Assembly (NCBI GenBank): GCA_017958745.1
Contig: JAGDCC010000031.1
Span: 1 to 33,851, forward strand
Direction of reading: 5' to 3'
DNA length: 33,851 nucleotides
From: a bacterium
GTDB lineage: Bacteria > Patescibacteriota > Dojkabacteria > SC72
In this document: positions 9,001-31,260 of the stretch, in pieces
Layout: every line of letters starts with the position of its first letter
Numbering within the stretch: the stretch's first letter is position 1
Made by a program: the position numbers and the translations under genes
Notes under the pieces: generated by a model
The model's database searches: none
What the model saw: only the letters and a program-made list of their open reading frames with translations
Told to the model about the DNA's origin: nothing

Positions 9001-11488
9001 AACCGTAACAAGTAGTGTAAATTCTGCAGGTACATTAACTGTTACCAGTAGAGCAAGCAGTGTAGCAACAGTAAGTCCAGCAAGTTCTTCTTTAACGGCA
9101 ACAACAACAGGAGTTTCTACAACAGAAACGATAACTGGTATTGCTAAGGGGTATAGTACAATAACAGTGAGTTTTACACCAACAGATACTACTAATTTTA
9201 ATAGTCCATCTAACAAGACATATTCCTTATCTGTAAATGGGGTCAACCAATGTATATCAGGAGATACATTAGCAAATTGTCTAGTCTATAATGATTATGG
9301 TGGTAGAAATTATAGTGATGCAGTAACAGCAATAGGAAACAAGTCTGCATCCAATTTCTCTTCTGTTTCTGAAACATATGAGGGACTTAAATCAATTTCC
9401 GATTATTCTAGTATAAGTGCAACAACATTAGATGGAACAAGTTATTATTACAGAGGGAGAATAGGTGATAACTGGGTTAGTTTTGCAGGATTCTTGTGGA
9501 GAGTTGTAAGAATTAATGGAGATGGAAGTGTAAGAATGATATATAGTGGGACGACTAGTAATCATGCTGGAACAGGTACACGAATAAGTACATCTGCATT
9601 TAACAGTAGTCGTAATAACTCTAAATATGTAGGGTATATGTATGACACAACTACAAATAGTACAATGAAGGGAGTAATAGATACATGGTATGAGAATAAT
9701 CTTAAAGCAAGTTACGAGGGTTATTTGTCAAACGAAATTTTCTGCAATGATACTAGTGTTGGAAGTACGAGTGGTAGTACAATCTATTACAGTACTTATG
9801 CAAGGCTATATACAAATAAAACACCTACATTAGAATGTGTAAATCAATCAGACAGATATACTTTGAAAGAATCTGGGCTTAGTAGTATTTCAGGAGTAAA
9901 TGGAGCAGGTAATAATATGTTAGATTATCCAGTTGGTTTATTAACAGCAGATGAGGTGGCTATAGCAGGAGGTGTCAATGGAACAAATAATACAAGTTAC
10001 TATTTATATACAGGGCAAAATTATAGACTAGGTTCTCCATATAGGTATTATAGCAGTAGTGCTTATGCTTACTACGTTAATACAAGTGGTAACCTGACAA
10101 ATGCTTATGTTACAACGAGTTATGGAGTGCGTCCAGTGATAAATCTAAAATCTGGTGTTAAGTATGCAAGTGGTGATGGTACAGAAGGTAATCCATATGT
10201 AATACAGGAAATACCAACACCAGCAATAACATTAAGTGCTAATAGTGGAAGTGTAGATTCAGGGGATACAACAACGTTTACAGCGACAGTAACATCCAGT
10301 AATTCTTACAATATAGCTGGTACATTAACAGTAAGTAGTGGAGATACAAGTAAAGCAACAGTAAGTCCTGCAAGTACTAACGTAACAGCAACGCAAGCAG
10401 GAGTAGCCACAACAATAACAGTAACAGGTGTGGCCGAAGGTAGTAGTTCAATAACAGTAAGCTTTACACCAACAGATACAGTATATTACAACAGTGCATC
10501 GGATGTATTATATACAGCAACAGTATCTAGTCCTCCACTTGCCAAGAAATTAATCATGGATGATTATGGAAGTAACAACTATGCAGCAGCAGTAGCAGCA
10601 ATAAATAACAAATCAGCTGTTGATTTCTCGACGACAGCAACAACAGATGAGGGCTTACATGCAATAGCAGATTACTCAAGTGTAAGTGCAACAACCTTAG
10701 ATGGAACGAGTTATTACTATAGAGGAGCAGTAGAAGATAACTGGGTAGATTTTGCAGGATATCTTTGGAGAATAGTAAGAATAAATGGAGATGGAAGTAT
10801 AAGATTAATATATAGTGGCACAACAAGTATTCATACAGGATCAGGTACTCAGATAGGTACATCTGTTTTTAACAGTAATGGAAGTGATTCTAAATATGTA
10901 GGATACACATATGATGATAATGGTACAGAAACAGATAGTATAATAAAGACTGCTATAGATAATTGGTATATAGCTAATATTAAGCCAAATTACGAAGGAT
11001 ATCTCTCTAACGAAATCTTTTGTAATGATAGAACATATACTGTTAATGGAAACATCCGTTATTTTGGTGCATATACAAGGCTAACAGCCAATAAAACACC
11101 AACACTACTATGTACAAACACACAAGATAAATATACGTTAAAGGTATCAGGACAAAGTAGTATATCAGGAACGAATGGAGCAGGTAATAACCTATTAGAG
11201 TATCCAGTAGGATTATTAACAGCAGACGAGGTATCTTTAGCAGGAGGTGTAAACGATATCGAGAATAGTAGCAGTTATCTTTATACAAGTAGTAGCTATT
11301 GGCTTGGTTCTCCTCGTATCTTCAATGGTGCTGCTGCTGATTTGTTCACTAATTGGGATGGAAAAATTGCTGGTGGTGGAAATCTAAGTTATAACAAAGG
11401 TGTTCGTCCAGTTTTAAATCTTAAACCTAGTGTTAAGTGGAACGGTGGTGATGGTTCAGAGAATACTCCATATACTGTAAAACTATAA
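2..11488 (+). CDS. Giant repetitive surface protein/adhesin, 5'-truncated (7x DUF6273/CLec-like domain, 9x Ig-like, 2x InlB B-repeat with CUB-like insert, 2x MBG-like domain)
   Basis: Frame is open from base 2 (ITLSAASGRVLVD...), so GTG at 35 is probably not the true start. Stop TAA at 11486-11488. Thr/Ser/Gly/Tyr-rich, with the recurring motif YYYRG..DNWVSFAGYLWRVVRINGDGSVR.IYSG...YPIGLLTADE...WLGSP...G.RPV.NLK. No C-terminal TM helix or sorting signal. Confidence 0.9.
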   Translation: MTLSAASGRVLVDNTNNFIATVSSGGSATVTGTLSVVSSDTTKVTVSPASSNITANTSGVATTETITGIAEGDSTITVSFTPADTSNFNSAVNKIYPVVVTVPTLAEKIIMDDYGDDNYNAAVTAINNKSARDFKTTATTDEGLHAIADYSSISSTTLDGTSYYFRGAADDNWVSFAGYLWRVVRINGDGSVRMIYSGTTSNHTGTDTWIGTSSYNVDGLDSKFVGYTYDTDTASTVKREIDAWYENNLKEEYESYLADEIFCNDKSISLERSGEYDTIYMANERLSNSYAPTLQCVNQSDRYTLKAQFGESSISGVSGAGNNMLRYPIGLLTADEVSLAGGLYGMYNNDYYLYTSDDSFWLGSPWQYSPNETYIYSFMFSVGYYFEYSSVSYHGDYNDLTTRGIRPVINLKPSVEYYSGSGTENDPYIIKEIPTPTITLSATENAILLGGTTSFVATVNSGTVSSIPGTLTVRSLDTSVATVSPASSSVTATTSGVSTSITVNGVGGGISRILLEFTPTDTATYGVSSKIYTISVNPCLSGDTLANCLIYADYGTRNYSTATTTINNKTAIVFRDPATTDEGLHAIADYSSVSSTTLDGTSYYYRGAVEDNWVSFAGYLWRVVRINGDGSVRLIYSGTTSNHTGVDTQIGTSPYNVDGLDSKFVGYMYDTTVNSTIKGVIDTWYENNLKAEYEGYLSNEIFCNDRSIAGYDYTNNFSYNTEHRLIQYDYYNHIYPTLQCENQSDRYTLKVQSEYSGIAGVSGAGNNLLDYPIGLLTADEATLSGVSIVGHNYHGYLSTGQLYWTSSPSYGSSYSHVLFVSTFGLGNKEPLSNNYGVRPVINLKSGVKYASGNGTETNPYVIELEPTISLSEYKGSVAPSDTLTFTATVYSGDTSSIPGTFTVSSSDTSKATVSPATSSITAIPSGTSVTVTVTGVASGSSTITVGFTPTDTTTYSTPESRVYTVTTRNDYTVTFNGNGGTFANNANTNTLVYPLGYLTLSNDTVTKYSHTSNVDDTGLKTSNYGNNWTNANITGTDRGDTTKAHVVTIPGARSLTVEIYYNGQGTSYDWVTVWAGSHPDYTAGSNYTSGISGGTRLGGSQSGSYTVNGNSLTNMGHSTFTIHGDTVTFGFKSNASNVGQGYGYYAIITNNGPIESVTYTGTYEEPTKSGYDFVGWLSSADGNVYNNLSGESLRPDDDITYTAQWGHYVAIPTNSYCRSGLSYTGSSQILTNAPGTGYSFSGNSAIDSGYHIVTAILDTDYVWEDNTRDNKGIRCNIYKIYPVLTLGATSGSVVEGNTSTFTAIVTSDVASAGTLSVVSDSTDVVTVSPTSSSITATTAGTSVTETITGVSRKGQGTITVDFIPTDIVNFSRPQKMYYSAFVEGVNQCLSGDTLADCLVYNDYGGRNYSNAIANINNKAPSDFTSISTTYEGLKAIEDYSSVSGTTLDGTSYYYRGDIRDNWVSFGGFLWRVVRINGDGSVRLIYSGTSSNHTGTGTRIGTSAFGSDSNDPKYVGYTYDDNEDSVIKGVVDTWYESNLMENYESYLSNEIFCNDRSVDDNSFGAFKRIFYNSAPSLVCVNQADKYTLKLSGNSYVSGINGAGNNLLNYPIGLLTADEAAIAGSGNYYGYINDTYYLYTGQTYWLGSPSYISSSYLGSTVTSSGYLDAVSVSNTSYNIGVRPVINLKSSVEYYGGSGSENNPYVIKELPTPVLTLSSAQGTVIQGNTTTFTATVASGSSSNIPGTLVVKNTDASIATVSPASTNVTATVSGVATTITLSGVNMGSSKIIVEFIPTDTTTYAVSSKIYNLTVAPCTAGDTLANCLIYSDSGTRNYSDATAAISNKTARDFNTTATTDEGLHAIADYSSVSSTTLDGTSYYYRGAVEDNWVSFAGYLWRVVRINGDGSVRMIYSGTTSNHAGTGTQIGTSSFDDSIYDQKHINYVHDTDTVIKENIDTWYENNLKDNYESYLSNEIFCNDTSIGSIVTADSYYYFGAYSRLYENKAPSLVCTNQSDRYTLKNIGISSIQGVSGDGNNRLNYPIGLLTADEVSLAGGKYNTSNNNYYLYSGQYYWLSSPHNVRYDSQSNTANMFYTSTYGSISYYELRASGIGIRPVVNLKPSIKYVSGTGTVSDPYEIESINTSTMMLSATEGSVMTGNTTSFVATVTSGSTSNISGTLLVRSEDTSKATVSPASSNITATPSGVSTTITATAAEAGVSKITVFFIPTDTTYGVSSKTYTLTVVPCTSGDTLANCLVYADTGTRNYSNAVTAINNKSARDFSTTATTDEGLHAAADYSSISSTTLDGTSYYYRGSVQDNWVSFAGYYWRVVRINGDGSIRLIYSGTSSDHGGSYTSISDASFSSASEIYYMSGSADSSIKKGLDRWYKNNINTIYENYLSNQMFCFDKEIDSISGYYTYYGAYSRLVTNKTPSLGCPNKEDMYTLREIGPSIVLGSNGAGNNKLDYPIGLLTADEAALAGGVYDVVNNSFYLYAENRDYWLGSPFYKNSNVTTGFEFYMKDSSSGTGDAGKLFATQSSVSHIGFRPVINLKASVKYNGGIGTESDPYVVKQEPALLLSSSIGGVYPNDTTTFTAKVYSGGESDISGLLTVSSSDTSKATVTPASSNVTAIPGGTEVTITITGVALGSSTITVTFTPTDTNYDAVSKIYTVTTRNNYTIDFDANGGTFTNSNTTNTIVYPTDYLTISQSNVTKYSHTSNVDDTGLRTSNFGNNWTNANITGTDRGDTSKAHVVTISGASFLTVDIYYSGDDGDWATIWAGSHPDYTAANNYTSSIIGGAQLGGYQGGSYTVNGNSLTSMGYSQFIISGDTVTFGFKSDSSGGWYGYYAVITGTFESITYTGTYEEPTKAGYEFLGWLSSEDGNIYHDISGESLRPDEDVTYTAQWGHYIAIPTATNYCKSGLAYTGSSQILTNTPATGYTFSGNTGINAGSYEVTASLDTDYVWIDDSRGTKTFSCSIGKVTPTISLSSTSGGVEVGSTSTFTATVTSSVNSAGTLTVTSRASSVATVSPASSSLTATTTGVSTTETITGIAKGYSTITVSFTPTDTTNFNSPSNKTYSLSVNGVNQCISGDTLANCLVYNDYGGRNYSDAVTAIGNKSASNFSSVSETYEGLKSISDYSSISATTLDGTSYYYRGRIGDNWVSFAGFLWRVVRINGDGSVRMIYSGTTSNHAGTGTRISTSAFNSSRNNSKYVGYMYDTTTNSTMKGVIDTWYENNLKASYEGYLSNEIFCNDTSVGSTSGSTIYYSTYARLYTNKTPTLECVNQSDRYTLKESGLSSISGVNGAGNNMLDYPVGLLTADEVAIAGGVNGTNNTSYYLYTGQNYRLGSPYRYYSSSAYAYYVNTSGNLTNAYVTTSYGVRPVINLKSGVKYASGDGTEGNPYVIQEIPTPAITLSANSGSVDSGDTTTFTATVTSSNSYNIAGTLTVSSGDTSKATVSPASTNVTATQAGVATTITVTGVAEGSSSITVSFTPTDTVYYNSASDVLYTATVSSPPLAKKLIMDDYGSNNYAAAVAAINNKSAVDFSTTATTDEGLHAIADYSSVSATTLDGTSYYYRGAVEDNWVDFAGYLWRIVRINGDGSIRLIYSGTTSIHTGSGTQIGTSVFNSNGSDSKYVGYTYDDNGTETDSIIKTAIDNWYIANIKPNYEGYLSNEIFCNDRTYTVNGNIRYFGAYTRLTANKTPTLLCTNTQDKYTLKVSGQSSISGTNGAGNNLLEYPVGLLTADEVSLAGGVNDIENSSSYLYTSSSYWLGSPRIFNGAAADLFTNWDGKIAGGGNLSYNKGVRPVLNLKPSVKWNGGDGSENTPYTVKL
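2912..3840 (+). repeat. InlB B-repeat (Listeria-Bacteroides repeat) with CUB-like insert, plus Cys-pair MBG-like domain, copy 1
   Basis: YTVTFNGNGGTF...[insert]...EPTKSGYDFVGW...ITYTAQW, then YCRSGLSYTGSSQILT...DYVWED...CNI. Near-duplicate at 8018-8930. Confidence 0.7.
8018..8930 (+). repeat. InlB B-repeat with CUB-like insert, plus MBG-like domain, copy 2
   Basis: YTIDFDANGGTF...[insert]...EPTKAGYEFLGW...VTYTAQW, then YCKSGLAYTGSSQILT...NAGSYEVTASLDTDYVW. Confidence 0.7.
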
Positions 11489-16581: not shown

Positions 16582-17889
16582 CTATAGATTCTTGCTTAGT
16601 AATTGGTTTAACTCCACAGCATATTCCATTGGCAACTCTTGGGTGAAGTTGTCTATGAAACCAAGGATAATTAGTTCTGTCGCCCTTTCTTTAGTAATTC
16701 CTCTACTCATAAGATAGAAGAGGGCATCATCGTTGATTCTAGATACAGTTGCTTCGTGTTCTAAAGAAGATTCTTTTGTACTGCATATATTTGTTGGGTA
16801 TGCATCGCTTTTAGAATTCTTATCTACAATTAATGAGTCACATTTAACCATAGCATGGCTATTTGTAGCACTCTTTTTAATCTCAACTTTTCCTCTGTAA
16901 GAAGCATTCCCACCAAGTCTAGCTATACTCTTAGAAATTATTGTACTGCTTGTATTTTTACCGATGTGTATCATTCTTGCTCCACTATCTAGTATCTGTT
17001 TATGTGTAGCAACACCAATAGTTATACATTTTCCAGAAGAGTTATCTCCTTTAAGTACACAGCAAGGATACTTCATTGTGATGGAACTACCAATATTTCC
17101 ATCTACCCATTCCATACTACCATTTTCTTCTACAACAGCTCTTTTAGTTACGAGATTTAATACGTTAGTTGCCCAATTCTGTACTGTTGTGTATCTACAA
17201 TAACTATTTTTACCAACATAAATCTCTACAACAGCTGCATGTAGACTAGAATCGCTATATGTTGGTGCAGTGCAACCTTCTATGTAATGAAGTTTGCTGT
17301 TGTCATCAACGATGATGAGTGTTCTCTCAAACTGTCCCATTGCTTTAGAATTAATTCTAAAATAACTCTGCAATGGTCTTTCCAGTGTAGTGTTTGGTGG
17401 TATGTAAATAAAACTTCCTCCAGAAAAGACTGCTCCATTTAGTGCTGTGAATTTATTCTCTGCTGTTCCAACAATCTTAGTGAAATATTTTTTAACTAAA
17501 GAAGGATACTTTTTCATGGCAACTTCTATGGATGTGAATATGACCTTCTTTTCTACTAATTCTTCTAACATGTTGTGATAAATAACTTCGCTCTCATACT
17601 GAACTCCCATACCACTCATGTATTGTTCACTGCTTATTACACCTAAGGCTTCAAATTCTGATCTAATGCTTGGATTTATACAACTCCAGCTACTATCTAA
17701 TTCATTAACTTTGTCTTTGTAATAAATAATCTTGTTGAAATCTATGTCTATCTTAGGTCCAAATTTGGGCATATCCAATTTGTTAAAGAGTTGGTAGCTT
17801 TTTAGTCTGTAGTCCAGAATCCACTTATCCTCATCTTTTATCTTGGATATTTCTCTTATATTTTGTTCATTAAGACCTGTTATTGTCAT
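16582..17889 (-). CDS. sufB: Fe-S cluster assembly scaffold SufB
   Basis: QYESEV, FSGGSFIY, GQFERTLII, EGCTAP, LHAAVVE, TMKYP, HEATVS, FYLMSRG, LPMEYAVE. Confidence 0.95.
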   Translation of the reverse strand: MTITGLNEQNIREISKIKDEDKWILDYRLKSYQLFNKLDMPKFGPKIDIDFNKIIYYKDKVNELDSSWSCINPSIRSEFEALGVISSEQYMSGMGVQYESEVIYHNMLEELVEKKVIFTSIEVAMKKYPSLVKKYFTKIVGTAENKFTALNGAVFSGGSFIYIPPNTTLERPLQSYFRINSKAMGQFERTLIIVDDNSKLHYIEGCTAPTYSDSSLHAAVVEIYVGKNSYCRYTTVQNWATNVLNLVTKRAVVEENGSMEWVDGNIGSSITMKYPCCVLKGDNSSGKCITIGVATHKQILDSGARMIHIGKNTSSTIISKSIARLGGNASYRGKVEIKKSATNSHAMVKCDSLIVDKNSKSDAYPTNICSTKESSLEHEATVSRINDDALFYLMSRGITKERATELIILGFIDNFTQELPMEYAVELNQLLSKNL

Positions 17890-18307
17890 TTTGGATTATT
17901 TTCTTAATAGCTTCTATAGGGAGTAGGGCACATTTTTTTCTAGATGGTTGCTTGTAGATTTCGTCGTAGATGTTAAATTCTCCAAGAATTTCTGGATTGT
18001 AAGGTTGTTCATTAATCATGTTTTCAAAGTTGGTAACTATTTCTTTTGCTTCTTCCAATGTCTTTCCTTTAAATTGTTTTGTCATAACACTTGTACATGA
18101 AGTACAAATTGCACATGCTTCTCCATCAAACTTAATATCTTCTAATTTCTCATTGTTTATTTTTGCAGCAACGTCTATGTTGTCTATGCAAGATTCGTTT
18201 CTAGAATTGACTTTTGTATAGCTTTTATCATTGCTATCTGGGAGACCTTTATTAGAAGGATTTTGGTAATTGTCTAGAATTATGTTTCTTTTAACATTTG
18301 CATCCAT
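17870..18307 (-). CDS. sufU: SufU Zn-dependent sulfur transfer protein
   Basis: ILDNYQNP, SCID, EACAICTS, RKKCALL. Located between sufS and sufB. Confidence 0.92.
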   Translation of the reverse strand: MDANVKRNIILDNYQNPSNKGLPDSNDKSYTKVNSRNESCIDNIDVAAKINNEKLEDIKFDGEACAICTSCTSVMTKQFKGKTLEEAKEIVTNFENMINEQPYNPEILGEFNIYDEIYKQPSRKKCALLPIEAIKKIIQNDNNRS

Positions 18308-19504
18308 TTATACAAGAGTGTCTAATATTTTATCTTGGTTTCTTAGTGCTTCCACAACTTTATCTATATCTTCTTTTGTGTTGTAAAAACTCAAGCTAAT
18401 ACGACATGTAGAGTTATCTTGTATTACTTCATGAAGCATCTTGGCACAGTGATTTCCTGCTCTTATGCAAATGTTTAATTGATTAAGATAGATTGCAACA
18501 TCTTGGCTAAAGTATTTATCCACGTTGAAAAGTACAATTGTTCCTTGTGTGCTAGGGTTGTAGATTTTTATATTAGGAATCTGTTTCATTTGTTCTAGTA
18601 AATATTGGTGTAGGGATATTTCGTAATTATGAATCTTTTCCAATCCTATACTGTTTATGTAATCTATTGCTGCTCCTAGACCAATAACTCCTGCAATATT
18701 TCTTGTTCCTGCTTCTAATCTTGTTGGTAGCTCTTTTAGACTGTAATCTCCTGTGCTTGAGAACTCTGTGTTCATATCACCACCATATTCTATTGGTTGT
18801 ATCTTTTCTAATAAAAATTTCTTTCCATAAAGAATACCAGTTCCCGTCGGTCCGTACATTTTGTGTCCGGAAAAAGCGAGAAAGTTTATGTTATCTTCTT
18901 GTACATCTATTTTTGTATGTGCAATACTTTGTGCTGCATCTACTACAAATAGTATGTTATTTTCTTTGCAAAGTTTACCAATGTTGTTTATATCCCTTGT
19001 GTCTCCAATTGTGTTTGTTATGTGTGCAATGGATATGACCTTTGTATTTGGTGTTATGCAATTTTTAATACTTTCTACAGTAAGTTTGTAATCTTTATCT
19101 AAAGGTGCGAAGACTAATTTGAATCCTATTTTTTTGCTTAAAACTATCCAAGGTAATGAATTGGATGCATGTTCTGCTTGATCTATGATTACCTCATCTC
19201 CTGGTTTGAGGTAGTGCTGCATAAAACCAAAAACAACAATATTAAGACCATTAGTTGTTCCATTAGTGTAAATAATCTCTTCTTTACTTTGTGCATTTAT
19301 GAATTCTCTTATCTTTTCTCTTGTAGTTTCGTATTCTTTGTCTGCTCTTATACTGTTGTTGTAATCTCCTCTATGTATATTAGAAGTGTATTCTTTGTAA
19401 TAGTCTGTAACTGCTTTTATAACAGACTTTGGCTTCATGGTTGTTGCAGCATTGTCCAGATAGTCTATTCCTGTTTTTAAAATGTCGAAATCTTCTGTGT
19501 TCAT
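18308..19504 (-). CDS. sufS: Cysteine desulfurase SufS (class II)
   Basis: YLDNAATT, DAAQS, SGHKMYGP (PLP Lys), EAGT, RAGNHCA (catalytic Cys). Confidence 0.95.
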   Translation of the reverse strand: MNTEDFDILKTGIDYLDNAATTMKPKSVIKAVTDYYKEYTSNIHRGDYNNSIRADKEYETTREKIREFINAQSKEEIIYTNGTTNGLNIVVFGFMQHYLKPGDEVIIDQAEHASNSLPWIVLSKKIGFKLVFAPLDKDYKLTVESIKNCITPNTKVISIAHITNTIGDTRDINNIGKLCKENNILFVVDAAQSIAHTKIDVQEDNINFLAFSGHKMYGPTGTGILYGKKFLLEKIQPIEYGGDMNTEFSSTGDYSLKELPTRLEAGTRNIAGVIGLGAAIDYINSIGLEKIHNYEISLHQYLLEQMKQIPNIKIYNPSTQGTIVLFNVDKYFSQDVAIYLNQLNICIRAGNHCAKMLHEVIQDNSTCRISLSFYNTKEDIDKVVEALRNQDKILDTLV

Positions 19505-20214
19505 AATGAATTAATTATATCATTAAATATCTTTTCCTCCTCATCCTTTAATTGCATGCTGTTAATTAAAAATGCTCTAGTTAATAATTTAATAGATTCT
19601 TCTTTACTAATACCTCTTGTCATTAAGTAGAATAGGTAATCTTCTTTAAAAGATCCAACATATGCAGAATGATTTGCTTCTATGTCATTATTACTAACTA
19701 TTAGATTTGGTAATATTTGACTGTCTCCATCCTTGTAGTTAATTATCTGGTTTTCTTGATTGAAATATGTATTGCTAGAGTTCTTTTCTATTATTCCATC
19801 TACAATAAATCTAAAAACACTGTTTTCCATATTTAGTGCATGGTTAACAATGTTGCTTCTGCTATCTTCCTTACTATGTATAAATTTTTCTGTATAAATG
19901 TTGTCTTTGTAATTAACGATGCTGTTGTTTATGTTTACATTAGCATTCTTACCTTTGATATTTACTGTTAGAGTATCGGAACAATCTATACTTAGCTTAT
20001 TTATTATTAAATTAACATTTTTATCTACATTATATGTAATGATGTTTTTTGTATTCTTACTAGTATCTAGCACACGTATAGATGTATTAGGGGAGGTCTC
20101 AATTGTTAACTCTGTATTAGAATTTGCATAATTAATGAAGATATTTGTATCTTCCTTTATCTTTATTCTTTCTTTGTGGTTACTGTTGTCTTTGTTATTT
20201 AGAATTATATCCAT
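19501..20214 (-). CDS. sufD: SufD-like Fe-S assembly protein (short)
   Basis: PNLIVSNNDIEANHSAYVG...LFYLMTRGI. Lies between sufC and sufS, with an ATGA overlap with sufS. Confidence 0.88.
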   Translation of the reverse strand: MDIILNNKDNSNHKERIKIKEDTNIFINYANSNTELTIETSPNTSIRVLDTSKNTKNIITYNVDKNVNLIINKLSIDCSDTLTVNIKGKNANVNINNSIVNYKDNIYTEKFIHSKEDSRSNIVNHALNMENSVFRFIVDGIIEKNSSNTYFNQENQIINYKDGDSQILPNLIVSNNDIEANHSAYVGSFKEDYLFYLMTRGISKEESIKLLTRAFLINSMQLKDEEEKIFNDIINSL

Positions 20215-20923: not shown

Positions 20924-20979
20924 AGTGCGATTAATTCTTGATAATTCTAATAAAATACTTGCTTAGCAAAGAAAAAGGT

Positions 20980-21300
20980 TTATTGCTTCTTTCCACATTT
21001 CTTACAAAACTTGGAATCATCATCTATTTCGCATCCACAATGTTTGCAAAAAACAGTAGATTTAGTAAGTCCTTCTCTTATTGCTCCTGCTGTAGTTTTT
21101 ACTCCATCTTTTGTAGCATAAGCCATGTCATCAGAGATACTCTTTAAATCTTCTTTTGATTCTTCAATCATGTATTTCTGTGCTTTAATTTCTCTACTCA
21201 TCATTTTGCCTTTGAATTTAGGACTTACAATCATTGCAATGATAAAGACAAATACTGCAGCTATAAATATTGGAACTATAATAAATAGAATACTAAACAT
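20980..21300 (-). CDS. Membrane-anchored zinc-ribbon protein
   Basis: N-terminal TM helix, C-terminal FCKHCG...FCKKCG, SD-like AGGAAG upstream. Confidence 0.85.
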   Translation of the reverse strand: MFSILFIIVPIFIAAVFVFIIAMIVSPKFKGKMMSREIKAQKYMIEESKEDLKSISDDMAYATKDGVKTTAGAIREGLTKSTVFCKHCGCEIDDDSKFCKKCGKKQ

Positions 21301-21304
21301 TTTT

Positions 21305-21337
21305 CTTCCTAATCTAATTTATATTAATATTATAACA
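21305..21337 (-). promoter_or_regulatory. Extended -10 (TGtTATAAT) and SD-like AGGAAG for the zinc-ribbon gene
   Basis: Minus strand: TGTTATAAT at 21337-21329 and AGGAAG at 21310-21305. Confidence 0.5.
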
Positions 21338-21370
21338 TTTTGTGCGTAAATAAGCTAAAACCTTTGTACA

Positions 21371-23398: not shown

Positions 23399-24679
23399 AT
23401 GTCAGTATTAATAGGATCCATACCAAACGACAAAAAAGATGATGTCAAACTAGCTAAGAAATTATCTAAAATTAATTTCTACAAAAAGAGTACATCGCTA
23501 GAAGAATTAGAAGCATACTTCTCAGAAATCTTTGAGGACAGATCTCTGTTTATGTTTAACAGAGGAAGAGATAGTCTTTATTTCTTATTAAAATCACTAA
23601 ACATAAAAAGAGAAGAAGAAGTTATCGTCCAAGCATTTACATGTGTAGCAACAGTATCTCCTATATTGTGGGTACATGCAAGACCTGTCTATGTAGATAT
23701 AGACAAAGAAACATATAACATGGATATTTCCAAGTTAAAGGAAGCAATTACGCCTAAAACAAGAGTAATTATTGTACAGCACACATTTGGAAATATAGCA
23801 GATGTATACAAAGTAAGAGAAATTGTAGATGAAATTAACAAAAAGAGAGAAGAGGATAAAAGAATATCTATAATAGAAGACTGTTGTCACTTATTCTATT
23901 TGACATCTCAAGAGTTGGAAGAGAAGTATGTAGGAATCTTTAGCGATGCATTCTTCTTTAGTTTTGCACAAGATAAAGCCATAAGCTGTACACAAGGAAG
24001 TGTATGTGTTGTAAATAACACAAAAATATTTGGAAAAAGAAAAACAGAATATGCAAATATACCGGAATTATCTAAGGAAGATGCTAAATATAATGCAAAA
24101 TATATTGTTACATGGAATAAGATTAGAAAGTGGTATTTTGTAAAAGTATTGCCATTTATTAAAAGTGATAAGTTTACAATTGGAAAATTTCTAATTCTTT
24201 ATTATAGAGAGAGAGGAGATATAAAGAAACAAGCGGATAATAATACAATTTACTACGATGGTATTCACAAACTAAGTTATATTCAGGCAAGCTTATTATT
24301 GCATCAGTTAGATAAATTGGAAGATCTTAACGAACACAGAATTGTTATTGAAAATATATACAACAAAGGTTTAAAAAAACAATTTCAATTCAAGAAAGAA
24401 AAAGGGAGTGTTTTACTCAGATATCCAATTATTGTAAAAAATATTGAAAAGATAAGAGAAGCTTTAAAGAAAAAGAAAATAATTGTTGGAAAATGGTATT
24501 CTACACCAATATTTCCTCTAGATTATGATGAATTAGAAAAAGTAAATTACAAAAAAGGACTGTGTCCTAATGCAGAAAGTTGTGGTAAAAAGATAATTAA
24601 TCTTCCATTAAGTATAGATACAACAGAGGAAGATGCTAAAAATATTGTGTCTATAATAAATAAATTTGCTAAACAATAA
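23399..24679 (+). CDS. DegT/DnrJ/EryC1/StrS family PLP-dependent aminotransferase
   Basis: VQAFTCVA, PVYVDI, IVQHTFG, IEDCCH, FSFAQDK (PLP Lys), C-terminal CPNAE....INLP. Confidence 0.88.
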   Translation: MSVLIGSIPNDKKDDVKLAKKLSKINFYKKSTSLEELEAYFSEIFEDRSLFMFNRGRDSLYFLLKSLNIKREEEVIVQAFTCVATVSPILWVHARPVYVDIDKETYNMDISKLKEAITPKTRVIIVQHTFGNIADVYKVREIVDEINKKREEDKRISIIEDCCHLFYLTSQELEEKYVGIFSDAFFFSFAQDKAISCTQGSVCVVNNTKIFGKRKTEYANIPELSKEDAKYNAKYIVTWNKIRKWYFVKVLPFIKSDKFTIGKFLILYYRERGDIKKQADNNTIYYDGIHKLSYIQASLLLHQLDKLEDLNEHRIVIENIYNKGLKKQFQFKKEKGSVLLRYPIIVKNIEKIREALKKKKIIVGKWYSTPIFPLDYDELEKVNYKKGLCPNAESCGKKIINLPLSIDTTEEDAKNIVSIINKFAKQ

Positions 24680-24680
24680 T

Positions 24681-25739
24681 ATGTCTTTAGAATTTAAAAC
24701 AATAGAAGATGATAGAGAGTGGGATAGTTTAGTTCAGTCTTTGCCAAAGTACTCTTTTCTAAATAGTAGCTGTAGATATAGATTTAATCTAGAAGTAGGT
24801 AGTAAATCTTACAGGTATGCTATTTATGATAAGGAAGCTTTCCTAGGAATAATTACTTTAACAATAGGGTATTCTAAGTTGTTTGGAAATTTCTTAGAGT
24901 GTAAACATTCTCCATTACTTTTTAAGTACGAATATTCTACACTAGAGGAAATTACAGAGTTTTGTAAGAATTTAGCAAAAGAGAATAATTGCTTTATGTT
25001 TAGATTTGCTCCATTGATACAGGAAAATGAAGATTTAGAGAAGTTTTATAATGAACATGAATTTAAGAAAGCACCTATACATAATGTAGATGCGCTTATT
25101 TCTCAGCATATGGATTTGACTTTGGATATTGCAGAATTAAGACACCAGCTTAGTAGTAGTAGAAAAAATAGATTAAATAAGTTGCTAAGAGATGAAACAG
25201 TATCTGTAAAGATATATAATGATAAAACTGCTTTTGATGATTTTAGAAAATTCCATGAAGAAACGGTTGCTCTTAAAGGTTATACAGATAAACCAACGGA
25301 TATCTTAATGAAAGAGCTATCTATGCAGGAAGAGCAGGGTATGTGTTATATGATTGTTGGTTGTATAGAAGATAAGCCAATTTCTATATGGCAAGCTACT
25401 GTTTATGGAAAAAATATGCATTTATACCAAGCATGTTCTAGTACGGAATATAGAGAAAAGAATCAAATAATGACAACACTTCTTTATTGGAAGACGGTTG
25501 AACTAGGGCAGAGTCTTCATTTAGAAACATTGGATTTGTTTGGTGGTGTAGTACCAAAGGGATGGGAACATAGTAGTCATCCATGGAGTGGAATTAGTGA
25601 TTTTAAGGAAAGTTTAGGAGGAGAAAAGATAACATATATGCATAGTAGAGATTATATGCTTAATAAACCTAAGTATTGGCTGTACTATTGGTATTCTTAC
25701 ATAAGAACTAGAAAGAAAGGATATACAATAGATTGGTAA
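24681..25739 (+). CDS. FemABX/MurM-like peptidoglycan peptidyltransferase (GNAT fold)
   Basis: WDSLV....YSFL.S, FRFAP, DLTLD..EL...L...R, LDLFG, GISDFKESLGG. ATG 24681 lies 1 nt after the upstream stop. Confidence 0.82.
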   Translation: MSLEFKTIEDDREWDSLVQSLPKYSFLNSSCRYRFNLEVGSKSYRYAIYDKEAFLGIITLTIGYSKLFGNFLECKHSPLLFKYEYSTLEEITEFCKNLAKENNCFMFRFAPLIQENEDLEKFYNEHEFKKAPIHNVDALISQHMDLTLDIAELRHQLSSSRKNRLNKLLRDETVSVKIYNDKTAFDDFRKFHEETVALKGYTDKPTDILMKELSMQEEQGMCYMIVGCIEDKPISIWQATVYGKNMHLYQACSSTEYREKNQIMTTLLYWKTVELGQSLHLETLDLFGGVVPKGWEHSSHPWSGISDFKESLGGEKITYMHSRDYMLNKPKYWLYYWYSYIRTRKKGYTIDW

Positions 25740-25754
25740 AATTACTATAAGGTG

Positions 25755-25783
25755 TTGCACACTCTCTTGTTTGGGTATATAAA
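25755..25783 (+). promoter_or_regulatory. Sigma70 promoter TTGCAC-17-TATAAA driving an intergenic transcript
   Basis: -35 at 25755-25760 and -10 at 25778-25783. Confidence 0.55.
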
Positions 25784-25789
25784 ATAATT

Positions 25790-25980
25790 ACCAAACTCAA
25801 TTTCATATTGGAAGGCGTGATAATTGGTTGGGGTCTTTATTATAGAAATATAATAGAAGGCAGTCTTCTAAGTTGTATGCTTCGGTATGCATCTTTGATA
25901 AATATTTTTAACCTTTATTGGTTAAGTATTTACTAAAATTTTTTAGAGGGGATTCATAATTAGTTTCCCCTCTTTTTTTT
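25790..25980 (+). ncRNA. Unidentified structured RNA (4 hairpins, putative pseudoknot, terminator)
   Basis: Hairpin 25798-25826. GAAA-capped hairpin 25833-25861. cUUCGg hairpin 25874-25891. Hairpin 25899-25932. Loop 25808-25816 is complementary to linker 25863-25871. The G-U pairs only work on the + strand. Confidence 0.65.
25945..25980 (+). terminator. Rho-independent terminator
   Basis: AGAGGGGA-13 nt-TCCCCTCT followed by a T run to 25980. Confidence 0.85.
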
Positions 25981-26013
25981 ATACATACATTATACAAATT
26001 CCCAATATATAGA

Positions 26014-26019
26014 TATAAT
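26014..26019 (+). promoter_or_regulatory. -10 box TATAAT 6 nt before the srtB ATG
   Basis: TATAAT-ctagtt-ATG. No SD. Confidence 0.55.
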
Positions 26020-26025
26020 CTAGTT

Positions 26026-26865
26026 ATGGAAAATATTAATGTTAAACAAAAGAAAGTAGATTTATTTGGTAAACTTTTATGGCTTGTGATTATTATATCT
26101 GCAGTTATTGTTGGGTATTGTGTTTATAGACTTGTTATAGAAGGAATATCTATGGTTGAAACAAATGGTTTGATTAAGGAATTTGATACGATCGTAGAAG
26201 TTAAAGAAGTCGTTGATTCTGATTCTGTAGAATTGGTAAACAAGGAAGAGAAAGCAATAGATAACGATTACTGGTATTACACATCTTTTCCTCTTATAGA
26301 TGTAGATTTCTCTAAATTGATGGAAAAGAATAAAGATACTGTTGCATGGATACAAGTAAAAGGTACAAATATCAACTATCCAGTAGTACAAGCTAGTGAT
26401 AATTCTTATTATCTTAACCATGCATATGATGGAAAGTACAATACCGGTGGCTGGTTGTTCATGGATTACAGAAACAATAGTTCTAGTTTAGAAGACAAAA
26501 ATACAATTATTTATGGACATGCAAGAATAGATGGAACAATGCTTGGTTCTTTGTCTAGAATTTTTTATTCTAGTTGGGTGAACAATAGAGATAACTATAT
26601 TGTCAGATTGTCTACACCTACACATAATACGATGTGGCAGGTATTTAGTGTTTACGAAACTCCTGTAGAGATGTATTACATTACAACAAAGTTTGCGAAT
26701 GATAACGATTATTCCGTATTCTTAGACACAATAAGGAGTAGAAGTAAGTATGATTTTAATACAGATGTTGATATTAATGACAAAGTTTTGACACTCTCTA
26801 CATGTAATGGAAATAACAAAAGAGTTGTATTACATGCTAAGTTGATAAAATCTGATAATAAATAA
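26026..26865 (+). CDS. srtB: Class B sortase
   Basis: N-terminal TM helix, N.DTVAWI.V.GT.INYPVVQ..DN.YYL, NTIIYGH, TLSTC and downstream Arg (catalytic His/Cys/Arg). Confidence 0.9.
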   Translation: MENINVKQKKVDLFGKLLWLVIIISAVIVGYCVYRLVIEGISMVETNGLIKEFDTIVEVKEVVDSDSVELVNKEEKAIDNDYWYYTSFPLIDVDFSKLMEKNKDTVAWIQVKGTNINYPVVQASDNSYYLNHAYDGKYNTGGWLFMDYRNNSSSLEDKNTIIYGHARIDGTMLGSLSRIFYSSWVNNRDNYIVRLSTPTHNTMWQVFSVYETPVEMYYITTKFANDNDYSVFLDTIRSRSKYDFNTDVDINDKVLTLSTCNGNNKRVVLHAKLIKSDNK

Positions 26866-26877: not shown

Positions 26878-29271
26878 ATGTACGACCATAAAAAGATAGA
26901 AGAAAAATGGGAAAAATATTGGGATGATAACAAGACATTCTATACGGATGTACATGATTTCTCCAAGAAAAAGTATTATGTATTGGATATGTTTCCTTAT
27001 CCATCTGGGGAAGGATTGCATTTAGGGCATCCAGAGGGTTATACAGCAACAGATATTGTATCCAGAATGAAGAGAATGCAAGGATTTAATGTCTTACATC
27101 CAATGGGTTTCGATTCTTTTGGTCTTCCTGCAGAGCAATATGCAATTAAGACAGGAAATCATCCAAGTGGTTTTACACAGAAGAATATAGAAACATTTAC
27201 AAAACAGCTTAAAAAACTAGGCTTTTCTTTTGATTGGTCTAAAGTTATCTCTACATGTGAACCTAAGTATTATAAATGGACACAGTGGATATTTAAGCAA
27301 CTATATGATGCAGGATTGGCTGTGGAAAGAGAAATGTCTGTAAATTGGTGTGAGGAGTTAGGGACAGTATTGGCAAATGATGAAGTTATAGATGGAAAGA
27401 GTGAGAGGGGAGGATATCCAGTTGTACGTAAAACAATGAAGCAGTGGGTGATGAGAATACCAGAGTACGCAGAAAGATTGCTAGAGGGATTGGATTCTAT
27501 TGATTGGCCAGAATCTACTAAAGAAATACAAAAAAATTGGATTGGTAAAAGTATTGGCGCACAAGTAACATTTAAAGTTAAGGATACAGATAAATCCTTC
27601 GATGTCTTTACAACAAGATGTGATACATTGTTTGGAGCTACATATTGTGTTTTATCCCCAGAACATCCTTTGGTATTAGAAATTTCAACAGAAGATAAGC
27701 TAGAAGAAGTTAAGAATTATATAGAAGAGTGCTCCAAGAAATCTGATTTGGAAAGAACTGATTTGGCAAAAGAAAAGACTGGAGTATTTATTGGTGCTTA
27801 TGCTATTAATCCTATTAACAATACAGAAATACCAATTTATATCTCTGATTATGTTCTTGCTACATATGGAACAGGTGCAATTATGGCTGTTCCTGCTCAT
27901 GATGATAGAGATTATGAATTTGCTAAGAAGTTTAATATAGAAATAATACCTGTTATAGAAGGTGGAGATATAGATAAAGAAGCTTATACAGGAGATGGTG
28001 TGCATATTAACTCTGATTTCTTAAACGGTCTAAATAAGCAAGATGCAATAGATAAAGCTATCGCATGGTTAGAAGATAATAAGTGTGGAAAAGCTTCTGT
28101 TAGTTACAAGATTAGAGATTGGATATTTGCTAGACAGAGATACTGGGGAGAACCAATTCCAGTATTACATTTCGCGGATGGTTCTACATGTACTCTTGAT
28201 GATGATGAGTTACCTTTGGTGTTACCAGAGTTAGAGGATTATAAGCCAAATAAAGATGGAAGCTCTCCATTAAATAAGGCAGTAGAGTGGGTGAATGTAG
28301 AAAGAGATGGTAAACCAGCAAAGAGAGATACTCAAACAATGCCAGGAGCTGCAGGATCTAGCTGGTATTGGATTAGATATATTGATCCTGACAATGATAA
28401 AGAATTTGCAGATATGGAGTTGATGAAGCATTGGTTGCCTGTCGATTTATATCTCGGTGGACCAGAGCATGCAACAGGACATTTGCTTTATTCTAGATTC
28501 TGGAATAACTTCCTTTATGATAAAGGTTTTGTCCCTGTAAAAGAACCATTCCAAAAACTTGTACACCAAGGAATGATACTTGGTACTAATGGAGAAAAGA
28601 TGAGCAAATCTCGTGGTAATGTCATCAATCCAGACGATATTATAGAGAAATATGGAGCAGATTCTCTACGTATGTTTGAGATGTTCTTAGGTGCACTAGG
28701 AGATTCTAAGCCTTGGAACGATAAAGGTATTATGGGATGTGTAAAATTCTTGGATAGAGTATGGAGACTGTATCATACAGAAGGAAAGATAGTAGATAAG
28801 GAAAACAGTAATCTTGAAAGAGTTTATAACTTTACTGTAAAGAAAGTAACAGAAGATTATGAATCTCTAAACTTTAATACGGCAATTTCCCAAATGATGG
28901 TATTTATAAATGCTGTTTATAAAGAAGATGTATTTCCTAAAACTTATGCAGAAAACTTTGTTAAACTTTTGAATCCTGTTTGTCCTTTTATTACAGAAGA
29001 ATTGTGGAATACAGTGCTTGGTTATGATGGAACAATCTCTTATGAAGAATGGCCAACTTATGATGCTACAAAGCTTTTAGAGAATACAGTAGAGGTTGTT
29101 GTGCAGGTAAATGGTAAGGTTAGGGATAAGCTAAGTGTTGAGATAGATATGGATAAAGAAGTATTGGAGAAAATGGCTGTAGAGTCTGATAAGGTTAAAT
29201 CCTTTATTGGAGATAAGGAGATAAGAAAAGTTATAGTAATCCCAAATAAAATAGTGAATATTGTTATATAA
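26878..29271 (+). CDS. leuS: Leucine--tRNA ligase
   Basis: [15 protein letters not shown] (HIGH), FTTRCDT and [15 protein letters not shown] (CP1 editing), [23 protein letters not shown]. Confidence 0.97.
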
Positions 29272-29283
29272 AAATAATAATAT

Positions 29284-29967
29284 ATGGCAAGTTCAGATTT
29301 TTTAAGACACAATATAAATCAGCACACAGTAAAAAATAATAAGTCCAAAACAATGGATAAAGATATTATACAAGCAACTAATGCAACGATAGCGTACCTA
29401 GAAGAAAAGTACCCTTCATTGAAATTTGAGTGGGTAAAGCAAATGAAATTGAAAGATATTGTTGCTATGTTGTCAAAACAATATCCAGAGTTGACTTATA
29501 TATTTGGAGAACCACAGGAGAGTAGTTTTATATCTCCTGATGGTGGGTTTCTCTTTGCAACAAACAAACAAGGGGAGAGAAGAATAGTTCTTGTTTCAGA
29601 AGTAAAAAGACAGGGAACAAATGATGCGAGACAGAAAGAAGGTTTAGGTATTCAGGCGAAAGGTACTGCTATAGAACGTTTAGGTAAGAATCTAATTGGT
29701 ATTCGAACAATATTCAAAAATGAAGGTTTTATTCCATTTATAACATTTGGATATGGATGGGATTTCAGAGAAGGATCTACTATTTTAGATCGTGTTTTAA
29801 CAATGAATGAATTTTTCCCGTTAAATAAGCAATTTGTTGTGAAAGATTATTTGCCTTTTGAACCGGTGACTATGATGTTTAGAGAGGAACCTTGGACTAT
29901 AGAAGAAATGACTGAACTTCTTATAGATGTCGCTGTGAAAGCTATTGAATATCGTTTTGTTGATTAG
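29284..29967 (+). CDS. EcoRI-family type II restriction endonuclease (possibly RAATTY-type)
   Basis: PDGG...VSEVKRQG (PD..ExK) and AKGTAIERLGKN, which aligns with EcoRI AAGNAIERSHKN. Also LDRV.TMN. Confidence 0.8.
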   Translation: MASSDFLRHNINQHTVKNNKSKTMDKDIIQATNATIAYLEEKYPSLKFEWVKQMKLKDIVAMLSKQYPELTYIFGEPQESSFISPDGGFLFATNKQGERRIVLVSEVKRQGTNDARQKEGLGIQAKGTAIERLGKNLIGIRTIFKNEGFIPFITFGYGWDFREGSTILDRVLTMNEFFPLNKQFVVKDYLPFEPVTMMFREEPWTIEEMTELLIDVAVKAIEYRFVD

Positions 29968-31127
29968 TTTTTCTTTATTAGCCAGAGCAACTCTTTGACT
30001 TTGTTATTTCTGCTACTAAGATTTCTTGATCCTCTGTAGGTATTATACTCTTGTTCAAACAGTTCCCATTTTCCATGTCTAGATACGATTTCTTGGAATT
30101 TCTCTATTGGTATAATTCCCTCGTTATTATATGAAATTAGAATATATTTTGCTTTAGTATCTCTTATTAAATCATCCATAGCTTGTTCTGCAGGAATTGT
30201 CTTATTGTAAGCTGAGCGTTGCCAATCTTTTGATATACCACTTACACCGTCCTGGATATCTATTGGTTTTCCACCATTGATAATGTTTAACATAAAGTAA
30301 TTCGAGCCATATGGGTGTTGGTTATATGGAGGGTCATAATAGGCTAAATCAACAGGTTCTAACTTATTGATTAAAGTATTTATGTCCTCGCAGTAAACGA
30401 TAGTTTCGTTCTCTATATCTGCAAAAATAGGTGTTTCTAGTATTATCTCTCCTTTTATTCTTGTTAATGCATTTTCACCAGCACCTCCGAAATGACCTAT
30501 ACCATCTTTTTTATGAAAACCCTTAAATACTCCTGAAGTGTTATTGTGAATAGAAGCTTTTATGATAAGTTGGGCGAGGCAATATAAGCGTAAATCTTCA
30601 TCAATATCGTGGTCTATCATGTATCTGATCTTATCTATTATTCGAGCATTCTTATTGGTATAGAAAACTCTTTCTCCCTGCTTGATATCGTTATCGTTTT
30701 TTGGTGCATAATTATTTGTAATGAAGTAGTCAGATTTTGTTTTTTTTAACTTATTTGCATTAAGATAATCAATAGCTTCGTTCAGCCTTTTTAAATCTAC
30801 TTCGGATTTATTTGTTAGATAAGCTGTGTTTACCGTCTTTGCATATTGCTCAAAATCGTTAGATATAAGTTTTGTTGTATGATATTTCAACAATCTTGCT
30901 ACTACACCACTTCCAGAAAATCCATCAAGTGCAGTTATCTTGTCTTTATTTAAACGTTTTTTGACTTCTAAGATACAGCTGTCTATAAATGGTAATAATT
31001 TCCTTTTATTTCCGAGATAAGTTATTAGATGAGAAATAAAGTACTGACTGTTAAAATCTGGAGATGTTCCTAACGCTGTGTCATCAAATAAGCATAATGT
31101 TTGGATATTTGCTTTATTTTTTGTCAT
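29964..31127 (-). CDS. N6-adenine DNA methyltransferase, alpha/D12 class (CtsM-like)
   Basis: ITYLGNKR.LL, DGFSGSG (motif I) preceding DPPYNQHPYGSNY (motif IV), ISYNNEG. Resembles my recollection of Campylobacter CtsM (RAATTY). Confidence 0.9.
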   Translation of the reverse strand: MTKNKANIQTLCLFDDTALGTSPDFNSQYFISHLITYLGNKRKLLPFIDSCILEVKKRLNKDKITALDGFSGSGVVARLLKYHTTKLISNDFEQYAKTVNTAYLTNKSEVDLKRLNEAIDYLNANKLKKTKSDYFITNNYAPKNDNDIKQGERVFYTNKNARIIDKIRYMIDHDIDEDLRLYCLAQLIIKASIHNNTSGVFKGFHKKDGIGHFGGAGENALTRIKGEIILETPIFADIENETIVYCEDINTLINKLEPVDLAYYDPPYNQHPYGSNYFMLNIINGGKPIDIQDGVSGISKDWQRSAYNKTIPAEQAMDDLIRDTKAKYILISYNNEGIIPIEKFQEIVSRHGKWELFEQEYNTYRGSRNLSSRNNKVKELLWLIKKN

Positions 31128-31170: not shown

Positions 31171-31260
31171 CGGAGAAGGAGGGATTCGAACCCTCGGCAG
31201 GCTTTAATGACCCGCGACTCGTTAGCAGTGAGTTCCTTTCGACCACTCAGGCACCTCTCC
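31171..31260 (-). tRNA. tRNA-Ser(GCT)
   Basis: Reverse complement is GGAGAGG TG CCTGAGTGGTCGAAAGG A ACTCA CTGCTAA CGAGT, long variable arm, GAGGG TTCGAAT CCCTC CTTCTCC G. G discriminator, CCA not encoded, upstream TATAAT at 31278-31273. Confidence 0.96.

Follow-up and report, generated by a model that had tools for sequence, protein, structure and literature searches.

A previously undescribed RNA gene family is present in three copies in the genome assembly of a bacterium of the Dojkabacteria (722 kb in 56 contigs, 88.6% complete, 33% G+C). The family is real, and its pseudoknotted, tetraloop-capped core is unusual for sibling small RNAs (sRNAs). We propose, with a probability of about 60%, that the three paralogous genes produce a new family of sibling, trans-acting, free-standing structured sRNAs with a predicted length of ~190 nt. 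One copy lies in the window, i.e. the whole 33,851-nt stretch of DNA that was analysed (contig C25), where positions 25790-25980 of the plus strand appear to be the gene for a structured non-coding RNA, with a putative transcript of that length. The two other copies (C42:456-664 and C9:1000-1195) are respectively 78% and 77% identical to the window copy over about 200 nt. Coordinates given without a prefix are those of the window.

Three gene copies in three different neighbourhoods

The similarity between the copies extends from ~15 nt upstream of the −35 box to ~5 nt past the U tract, therefore the repeated unit consists of promoter, RNA and terminator, and nothing more. On contig C25, the RNA is preceded by the genes of a DegT-type aminotransferase and a GNAT/FemAB-like protein and followed by those of a sortase (srtB) and of LeuS. 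On contig C42, it stands between a gene encoding a Schlafen/AlbA_2 protein (minus strand) and two others, also on the minus strand, encoding an RRM protein and an SNase-type nuclease. On contig C9, it is flanked by a gene for a protein without Pfam match and by a minus-strand gene for a 360-amino-acid protein, which likewise has no Pfam match. No neighbour gene family common to the three loci was found. Because the flanks differ, it is unlikely that the three copies are an assembly or binning artefact of a single locus.

The element was also encountered in sequencing runs. Its DNA occurs in runs from nine gut or bovine gut metagenome studies, four of which may be the source. Run X5 yielded a contig of 12,107 nt across the window locus, with seven differences in 351 nt; the four of these for which positions are listed are all in the promoter spacer (25767-25771), and the list contains none within the RNA body. 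The same run yielded a second contig of 19.7 kb, which carries the C42-type copy, and the two contigs have near-equal depth (9.66 vs 9.46).

In the window, 286 non-coding bases separate the stop of the GNAT/FemAB-like gene (24666-25739) from srtB (26026-26865), and leuS starts 12 nt past the end of srtB. The first-pass annotation had described this region as the only long intergenic gap, which is roughly right: the stretch 20924-21370 is also devoid of ORFs of at least 120 amino acids, but it contains smaller ones.

The next gene is convergent with the RNA at two of the three loci (the RRM protein gene on C42 and the gene of the 360-amino-acid protein on C9), hence we regard the RNA as the product of a free-standing gene and not as a leader of srtB-leuS. 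This agrees with the earlier proposal that the RNA is independent of srtB, which had been based on a −10 box proper to srtB. Such a promoter-like site (TATACA-17-TATAAT, 10/12 matches) was found downstream of the RNA, at 25991-26019 on the plus strand; it does not belong to the RNA, and the block that the three copies have in common does not include it. Its −10 box TATAAT (26014-26019) stops 6 nt short of the ATG at 26026, with no Shine-Dalgarno sequence in between, and the srtB mRNA may be leaderless.

As to the wider surroundings, the region 29284-31127, 3.3 kb downstream of the RNA, contains two convergent genes, one for an EcoRI-like restriction endonuclease and the other for an adenine methyltransferase of class D12. 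Defence-type genes also occur near the other copies, namely the Schlafen/AlbA_2 gene on C42 and, on C9, the ORF starting from L003:2465, a putative restriction enzyme as judged from a reading of its translation.

Promoter and terminator

Each copy retains a promoter-like site and a terminator-type hairpin. In the window, the promoter-like site (25755-25783, plus strand) comprises the −35 box TTGCAC (25755-25760), a 17-nt spacer and the −10 box TATAAA (25778-25783), and transcription is predicted to start near A25790. A promoter scan reported TGCACA-18-TAAAAT (25756-25785, 9/12 matches), which overlaps the TTGCAC-17-TATAAA promoter of the first-pass annotation with an offset of one base, so that both designate the same site. 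Promoter-like matches are no commoner in this region than in shuffled sequences (five found, 6.4 expected); the promoter is credible because its block is conserved in all three copies, and the −35 box of the C9 copy is a perfect TTGACA. Upstream of the −35 box lies a further conserved block, AATTACTATAAGGTG (25740-25754, plus strand), largely identical across the three copies and possibly an UP element or the site of a regulator. Allowing up to two mismatches, this motif has no occurrence in the genome beyond the three copies, i.e. no wider regulon was found.

The terminator-type hairpin (25945-25980, plus strand) has a G+C-rich stem of 8 bp (25945-25952 paired with 25966-25973), a loop of 13 nt (25953-25965, UUCAUAAUUAGUU) and a U tract (25974-25980), i.e. 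seven T directly after the stem. Our terminator scan missed it because the loop limit of the scan is 8 nt; the terminator described earlier is where it had been placed. The loop is invariant, and the 17 nt formed by the loop and its closing pairs are identical in the three copies and have no other mismatch-free site in the genome. The loop contains the palindrome UAAUUA (six A-U pairs), which may permit loop-loop dimers, or may be there by chance.

Predicted fold

The minimum free energy (MFE) fold of the plus strand from 25785 to 25982 consists of P1, a GAAA-capped P2, a UUCG-capped P3, P4 and the terminal hairpin, thereby reproducing every hairpin claimed by the first-pass annotation. The energy of this fold is −49.5 kcal/mol as compared to −34.6 ± 3.5 kcal/mol for dinucleotide shuffles (z = −4.24; 0/200 shuffles as stable), whereas the minus strand folds more weakly (−35.5 kcal/mol, z = −3.57). 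Together with the G-U pairs and the U tract, this better fold supports the assignment of the RNA to the plus strand.

P1 (25791-25832) is a long irregular hairpin, closed by the pairing of C25791/C25792 with G25831/G25832, and its loop has 10 nt (25807-25816). P2 (25833-25861) is capped by the GAAA tetraloop (25845-25848); its upper seven A-U pairs and this tetraloop are invariant, whereas the base of the stem is variable. P3 (25871-25894) carries the C(UUCG)G loop, with UUCG at 25881-25884. P4 (25897-25934) is a variable hairpin, the length and sequence of which differ among the copies; after it, and before the terminator, comes the conserved linker CUAAAAU (25933-25939). All these elements are on the plus strand. 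We propose that the 5' two-thirds of the RNA would form a compact domain, in which P1 and a pseudoknot between its loop and the P2-P3 linker would be flanked by the GAAA-capped P2 and the UUCG-capped P3.

The two strands of this pseudoknot are UUGGAAGGC (25808-25816, within the P1 loop) and GUCUUCUAA (25863-25871, in the P2-P3 linker), both on the plus strand. Their 9-bp complementarity, which the first-pass annotation had pointed out, is real, and its main support is comparative, coming from the pair counts of the three copies described below. Taken alone, the complementarity is modestly unusual: contiguity is not rare, as 715 of 5000 shuffles of the 107 nt downstream (mononucleotide shuffling) contained a run of at least nine pairs (G-U allowed); the energy is uncommon, as a duplex as stable as −9.8 kcal/mol occurred in only 26 of 2000 shuffles. 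The energy of the pseudoknot duplex is about −10 to −11 kcal/mol. In plain folding P1 and the pseudoknot helix compete, and both RNAalifold and the MFE fold of the C9 copy keep the long-range helix and lose P1. The two helices may thus coexist as a pseudoknot or alternate with each other.

The canonical 11-nt receptor of GAAA tetraloops was looked for by inspection and rejected.

Compensatory changes among the copies

Base pairs were counted on a model-fitted alignment of the three copies, and the controls were the same counts with the 3' partners slid by 1-3 columns, as well as 500 column shuffles; the covariation set thus consists of three paralogues of one metagenome-assembled genome and fragments of a fourth. 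Standard pairs occupy 92.0% of the 187 pair cells, as compared to 42.9-49.2% with slid partners. Seventeen of the 63 pairs are altered on both sides with pairing kept (0-4 when slid), and none of the 500 column shuffles reaches the observed value on any of five measures.

All helices were counted separately. In P1 (14 pairs), 80% of the cells are paired, with four both-side changes, and the C9 copy is one column out of register. The lower stem of P2 (four pairs) is 100% paired with two both-side changes, and its upper stem (seven A-U pairs) is 100% paired without any variation. P3 (nine pairs) is 100% paired, with two both-side and three one-side changes. P4 (13 pairs) is 71-94% paired, depending on which of its two segments is considered, and has five both-side changes, while the terminator stem (eight pairs) is 100% paired with three both-side changes.

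The eight counted pairs of the pseudoknot are also 100% paired in the three copies, one C-G pair being replaced by U-A and one G-U pair by G-C. A fourth variant, present on a 151-nt contig of run X10, carries the changes T to C at 25864 and C to T at 25865, which turn a G-U into a G-C pair and a G-C into a G-U pair. The comparative support of the pseudoknot thus amounts to a single compensatory pair plus two or three exchanges that involve wobble pairs. Compensatory changes in the helices, pseudoknot included, are seen among copies of a single genome.

The positions that remain invariant at 22% divergence are grouped into blocks. They are the 19 nt comprising the top of P2 and its GAAA loop, both pseudoknot strands (apart from the exchanges just mentioned), the C(UUCG)G loop of P3, the UCUUUG that follows P3, the CUAAAAU that precedes the terminator, and the 17 nt at the terminator loop.

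Comparison with known RNA families

The RNA falls outside the known families. With Rfam 15 at the gathering scores, the sole match in the whole window is a tRNA at 31171-31260 (minus strand). When the region 25650-26100 was searched with E-values up to 10, the three best matches, with scores of 18, 18 and 14.6 bits, fell short of their respective cut-offs (60, 50 and 41.2 bits), and the RNA was also left unmatched by Rfam 15 in the C42 and C9 copies. In line with the first reading, which saw no T-box signature, the T-box model (RF00230) has no match in the region (E up to 10) or in the genome, a genome search for which the control was positive in 6 of 14 genomes. The RNase P RNA of the genome is normal (149 bits). 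As for tmRNA (RF00023), nothing above the cut-off was found in the 88.6%-complete genome; this search left short pieces of 14-29 bits, at least one of which lies inside the tRNA gene of the window.

Several specific identities were considered and rejected. First, 6S RNA (RF00013) has no match in the genome, and the MFE fold of our RNA consists of five separate hairpins, with no rod bearing a central bubble; what it shares with 6S RNA and the CsrB/RsmZ RNAs is a similar size, a free-standing nature, a possible binding of protein and a possible presence in several copies. Second, a CsrB/RsmZ-type sponge is not consistent with the low number of GGA motifs (two or three), and CsrA (PF02599) was not detected in the 88.6%-complete genome. 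Third, a tracrRNA or scoutRNA was rejected, as a script that searched the 56 contigs for regularly spaced 18-mer repeats found no CRISPR-like array. Fourth, an SRP RNA, of which the first-pass annotation had likewise seen no signature, was rejected since neither RF00169 nor RF01854 matched and no Ffh M domain was found in the genome or in the genus.

This last search revealed a peculiarity of the lineage, which we report in its own right. A search of 151 genomes (our genome and 150 relatives, representing 20 families and 74 genera), 99 of which are at least 90% complete and one of which is closed, gave no match to PF00448, the GTPase domain of Ffh and FtsY. Likewise, none of the 23 genomes of the genus matched the M domain of Ffh (PF02978) or the small SRP RNA (RF00169), and the large SRP RNA was absent from the one genome searched, our own. 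The controls were positive in 14/14 genomes for both protein families and in 12/14 for RF00169. Furthermore, the motif DTAGR, which we take to be expected of SRP-type GTPases, is absent from every frame of our genome. In the part of the literature accessible to us, no paper was found that links this lineage with a loss of SRP. Judging from these genomes, the SRP targeting pathway seems to be missing across the whole lineage.

Among known systems, the best likeness is with the sibling sRNA families of bacteria, such as Qrr1-5, LhrC1-5, the csRNAs and OmrA/B. Similarly to them, our RNAs are diverged paralogues in one genome, each with its own promoter, intrinsic terminator and invariant blocks, and they have a narrow distribution and no fixed gene partner. 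Most sibling sRNAs have a simple hairpin architecture with an unpaired seed, and Hfq is required by many of them. In contrast, the core of the RNA described here is built of several helices and a pseudoknot and contains paired elements that do not vary; Hfq was not detected in the 88.6%-complete genome, and targets of the loop are not enriched (see below). The raiA motif RNA, an orphan structured RNA of Gram-positive bacteria that is presumably among the Rfam families scanned, offers another comparison: like it, our RNA is (by prediction) free-standing, pseudoknotted, ~200 nt long and endowed with its own promoter and terminator, and has no assigned function. Unlike orphan motifs such as raiA, which occur in many genera, it is found in a single lineage and is unmatched in Rfam. 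The proposal of a novel class of non-coding RNA is overstated: this is a new, unmatched family with compensated helices, of narrow distribution and with a predicted transcript.

Distribution

We built two covariance models of the RNA, R1 (full-length) and R2 (core), against which the three copies score 172-202 and 103-127 bits, respectively. Neither produced a credible match in 22 congeners, 90 genomes of the same family, the rest of the 150-genome sample of relatives or a 150-genome sample of the phylum. With R1, the two non-self matches among the 150 relatives (~25 bits) proved on inspection to be terminators behind coding sequences, and so did the six that were inspected of the 13-20-bit matches obtained in 10 of the 22 congeners with lax filters; the best congener match of R1 falls within an ORF (810..1616 of L021). 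R2 found nothing in 40 genomes of the same family or in the 150 genomes of the phylum sample, and gave one weak match (18 bits, E = 0.43) among the 22 congeners. The sole srtB orthologue of the genus (genome G003, 47% identity) has no such RNA nearby, even with the filters off. Furthermore, blastn of the 236-nt element against 60 relatives returned only short chance matches (19-42 nt), blastn against phages returned nothing and against plasmids two short chance matches, and strict pattern scans of genome, virus and metagenome contig collections gave 0 matches. The first-pass annotation had suggested collecting homologues from related genomes; among ~320 relatives searched, none was found outside one species-level lineage, and therefore nothing ties the RNA to a function by this route.

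This absence of homologues says little, because the congeners are very distant. The ClpC-like chaperone is 56-62% identical at the amino-acid level in the five congeners tested (5/5), and LeuS is ~44-48% identical in its main matches (19 of 22 congeners matched, two of them through short C-terminal fragments only, with 29-32% identity). Small RNAs can seldom be recognised across such distances, and a range limited to a single lineage fits a young sRNA family and does not show a foreign origin. As to the proteins of the window, LeuS (gene at 26878-29271) has poorer matches in the congeners than the ClpC-like protein, which is also encoded in the window, and SufB (suf genes at 16582-20214) has no match in any of the five congeners tested. 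From these comparisons, a source outside the genus is possible for parts of the window.

Alternative explanations

In a first alternative, which we hold to be unlikely, the pseudoknotted 5' domain would be a new type of tertiary-structured functional RNA, i.e. a ribozyme or the RNA core of a ribonucleoprotein (RNP), specific to an ultra-small episymbiotic bacterium of the candidate phyla radiation and maintained in three copies because a high dose is needed. If this were true, the RNA could replace a function whose usual machinery has been lost by the lineage.

There is only a slim chance that the RNA is catalytic (self-cleaving or other), or that it is a component of a mobile or defence element present at three sites through spreading. 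The compact pseudoknotted core with its GNRA and UUCG loops, the many invariant positions, the multiple copies in a restricted lineage and the restriction or defence-type genes within ~3.5 kb at all three loci (on C9 as read from a translation) would all suit such an element. However, the known ribozyme families have no match, even with E-values up to 10; the three loci share no transposase, integrase, reverse transcriptase or other gene; inspection of the ends of the shared block showed neither terminal repeats nor target duplications; the viral, phage and plasmid collections contain no match; and the assembly has no CRISPR-like array.

It is very improbable that we are dealing with a non-functional repeat, i.e. 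with duplicated intergenic DNA that folds by chance and gives no stable RNA. A+T-rich sequences readily make hairpins, the element is limited to one lineage, and none of the listed sequencing runs with the stretch is recorded as RNA. Against this reading stand the 17 pairs altered on both sides with pairing kept at 22% divergence, and the invariant runs of 19 and 17 positions that adjoin variable stems. Moreover, all copies have retained promoter and terminator, and a genome of 0.72 Mb has kept all three.

We give still less credence to a cis-acting leader or riboswitch, the 5' domain of which would sense a ligand or a tRNA and set termination, thereby controlling srtB-leuS at the locus in the window and, at the two others, antisense read-through into the convergent genes. 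In favour of it, one copy is upstream of srtB-leuS, the multi-hairpin pseudoknotted layout ends in a terminator, and the existence of several copies, conserved in the 5' domain but not in P4, recalls an aptamer with its expression platform. The likeness to a T-box leader is also apparent in the size (~190-200 nt), in the several hairpins plus terminator and in the position of one copy upstream of leuS. Unlike a T-box, however, the RNA has no T-box sequence or antiterminator bulge, srtB and its promoter-like site stand between it and leuS, and two copies are upstream of no co-oriented gene. Inspection of the three-copy alignment also revealed no C-rich or other conserved segment that would compete with the terminator stem, and no conserved antiterminator pairing was seen in it; an expression platform would have no need for the invariance of the terminator loop; RF00230 is unmatched; and a single lineage among the ~320 relatives has the RNA. 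The riboswitch put forward among the possibilities in the first-pass annotation is thus unlikely.

Least credible is a structured mRNA that would encode a small protein, such as a peptide akin to type I toxins, or an RNA with both functions. Loci of type I toxins usually occur in several copies, are confined to a lineage and fold strongly, and every copy of our RNA has a frame that opens at one and the same TTG of the P1 loop (42, 42 and 30 codons) and exceeds the length expected in a sequence of 29% G+C. However, the products agree over their first 16 residues only (beyond these, 1-, 2- and 5-nt indels put the copies in different frames), the TTG start lacks an upstream Shine-Dalgarno sequence, the peptides have no conserved hydrophobic helix, no conserved antisense RNA gene adjoins the copies, and the nucleotide changes match helix compensation.

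Proposed mode of action and significance

Returning to the sibling sRNA family, which we favour, we propose the following scheme. Each copy would be transcribed from its own sigma-70-type promoter into an RNA of ~190 nt, ending at its own intrinsic terminator, and the RNAs would act in trans as a small sibling family. Their mode of action can be envisaged in two ways. In the first, to which we tentatively give somewhat less than an even chance, a partner, most probably a protein, would recognise the shape of the folded 5' domain, and the RNA would form an RNP or serve as a decoy. This view comes from the fact that paired elements (the top of P2, the pseudoknot strands and the P3 loop) are frozen while the other stems drift in a compensated manner. 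In the second, a possibility that we rank just behind, the RNAs would regulate mRNAs independently of Hfq, by base pairing via an exposed invariant loop or linker.

As regards a possible partner, the gene of an 86-amino-acid RRM-type RNA-binding protein (L002:776-1036, minus strand) converges on the RNA copy of contig C42. This RRM protein is a candidate partner, present at one of the three loci only.

As regards base pairing, the invariant loop was compared with the starts of 598 ORFs, 12 of which reached −8 kcal/mol or lower; with 40 shuffled loops the corresponding number averaged 10.7 and went up to 26, i.e. there is no enrichment. Elsewhere in the window, an ORF of giant size (2-11488, more than 3,800 codons) runs off the 5' end, and related repeat segments occur on contig C28. 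One C28 repeat segment (from base 40388) contains, within apparent coding sequence, a perfect 13-nt complement of the terminator loop.

In the part of the literature accessible to us, no paper was found on structured or regulatory RNAs of the ultra-small bacteria of the candidate phyla radiation. The genome of this uncultured bacterium, at 0.72 Mb, spends scarce sequence on three diverged copies whose helices are preserved by compensatory changes, which argues for a real function. With its promoter, its predicted ends, its helices, its pseudoknot and its invariant loop all delimited, the element provides a concrete and testable entry point.
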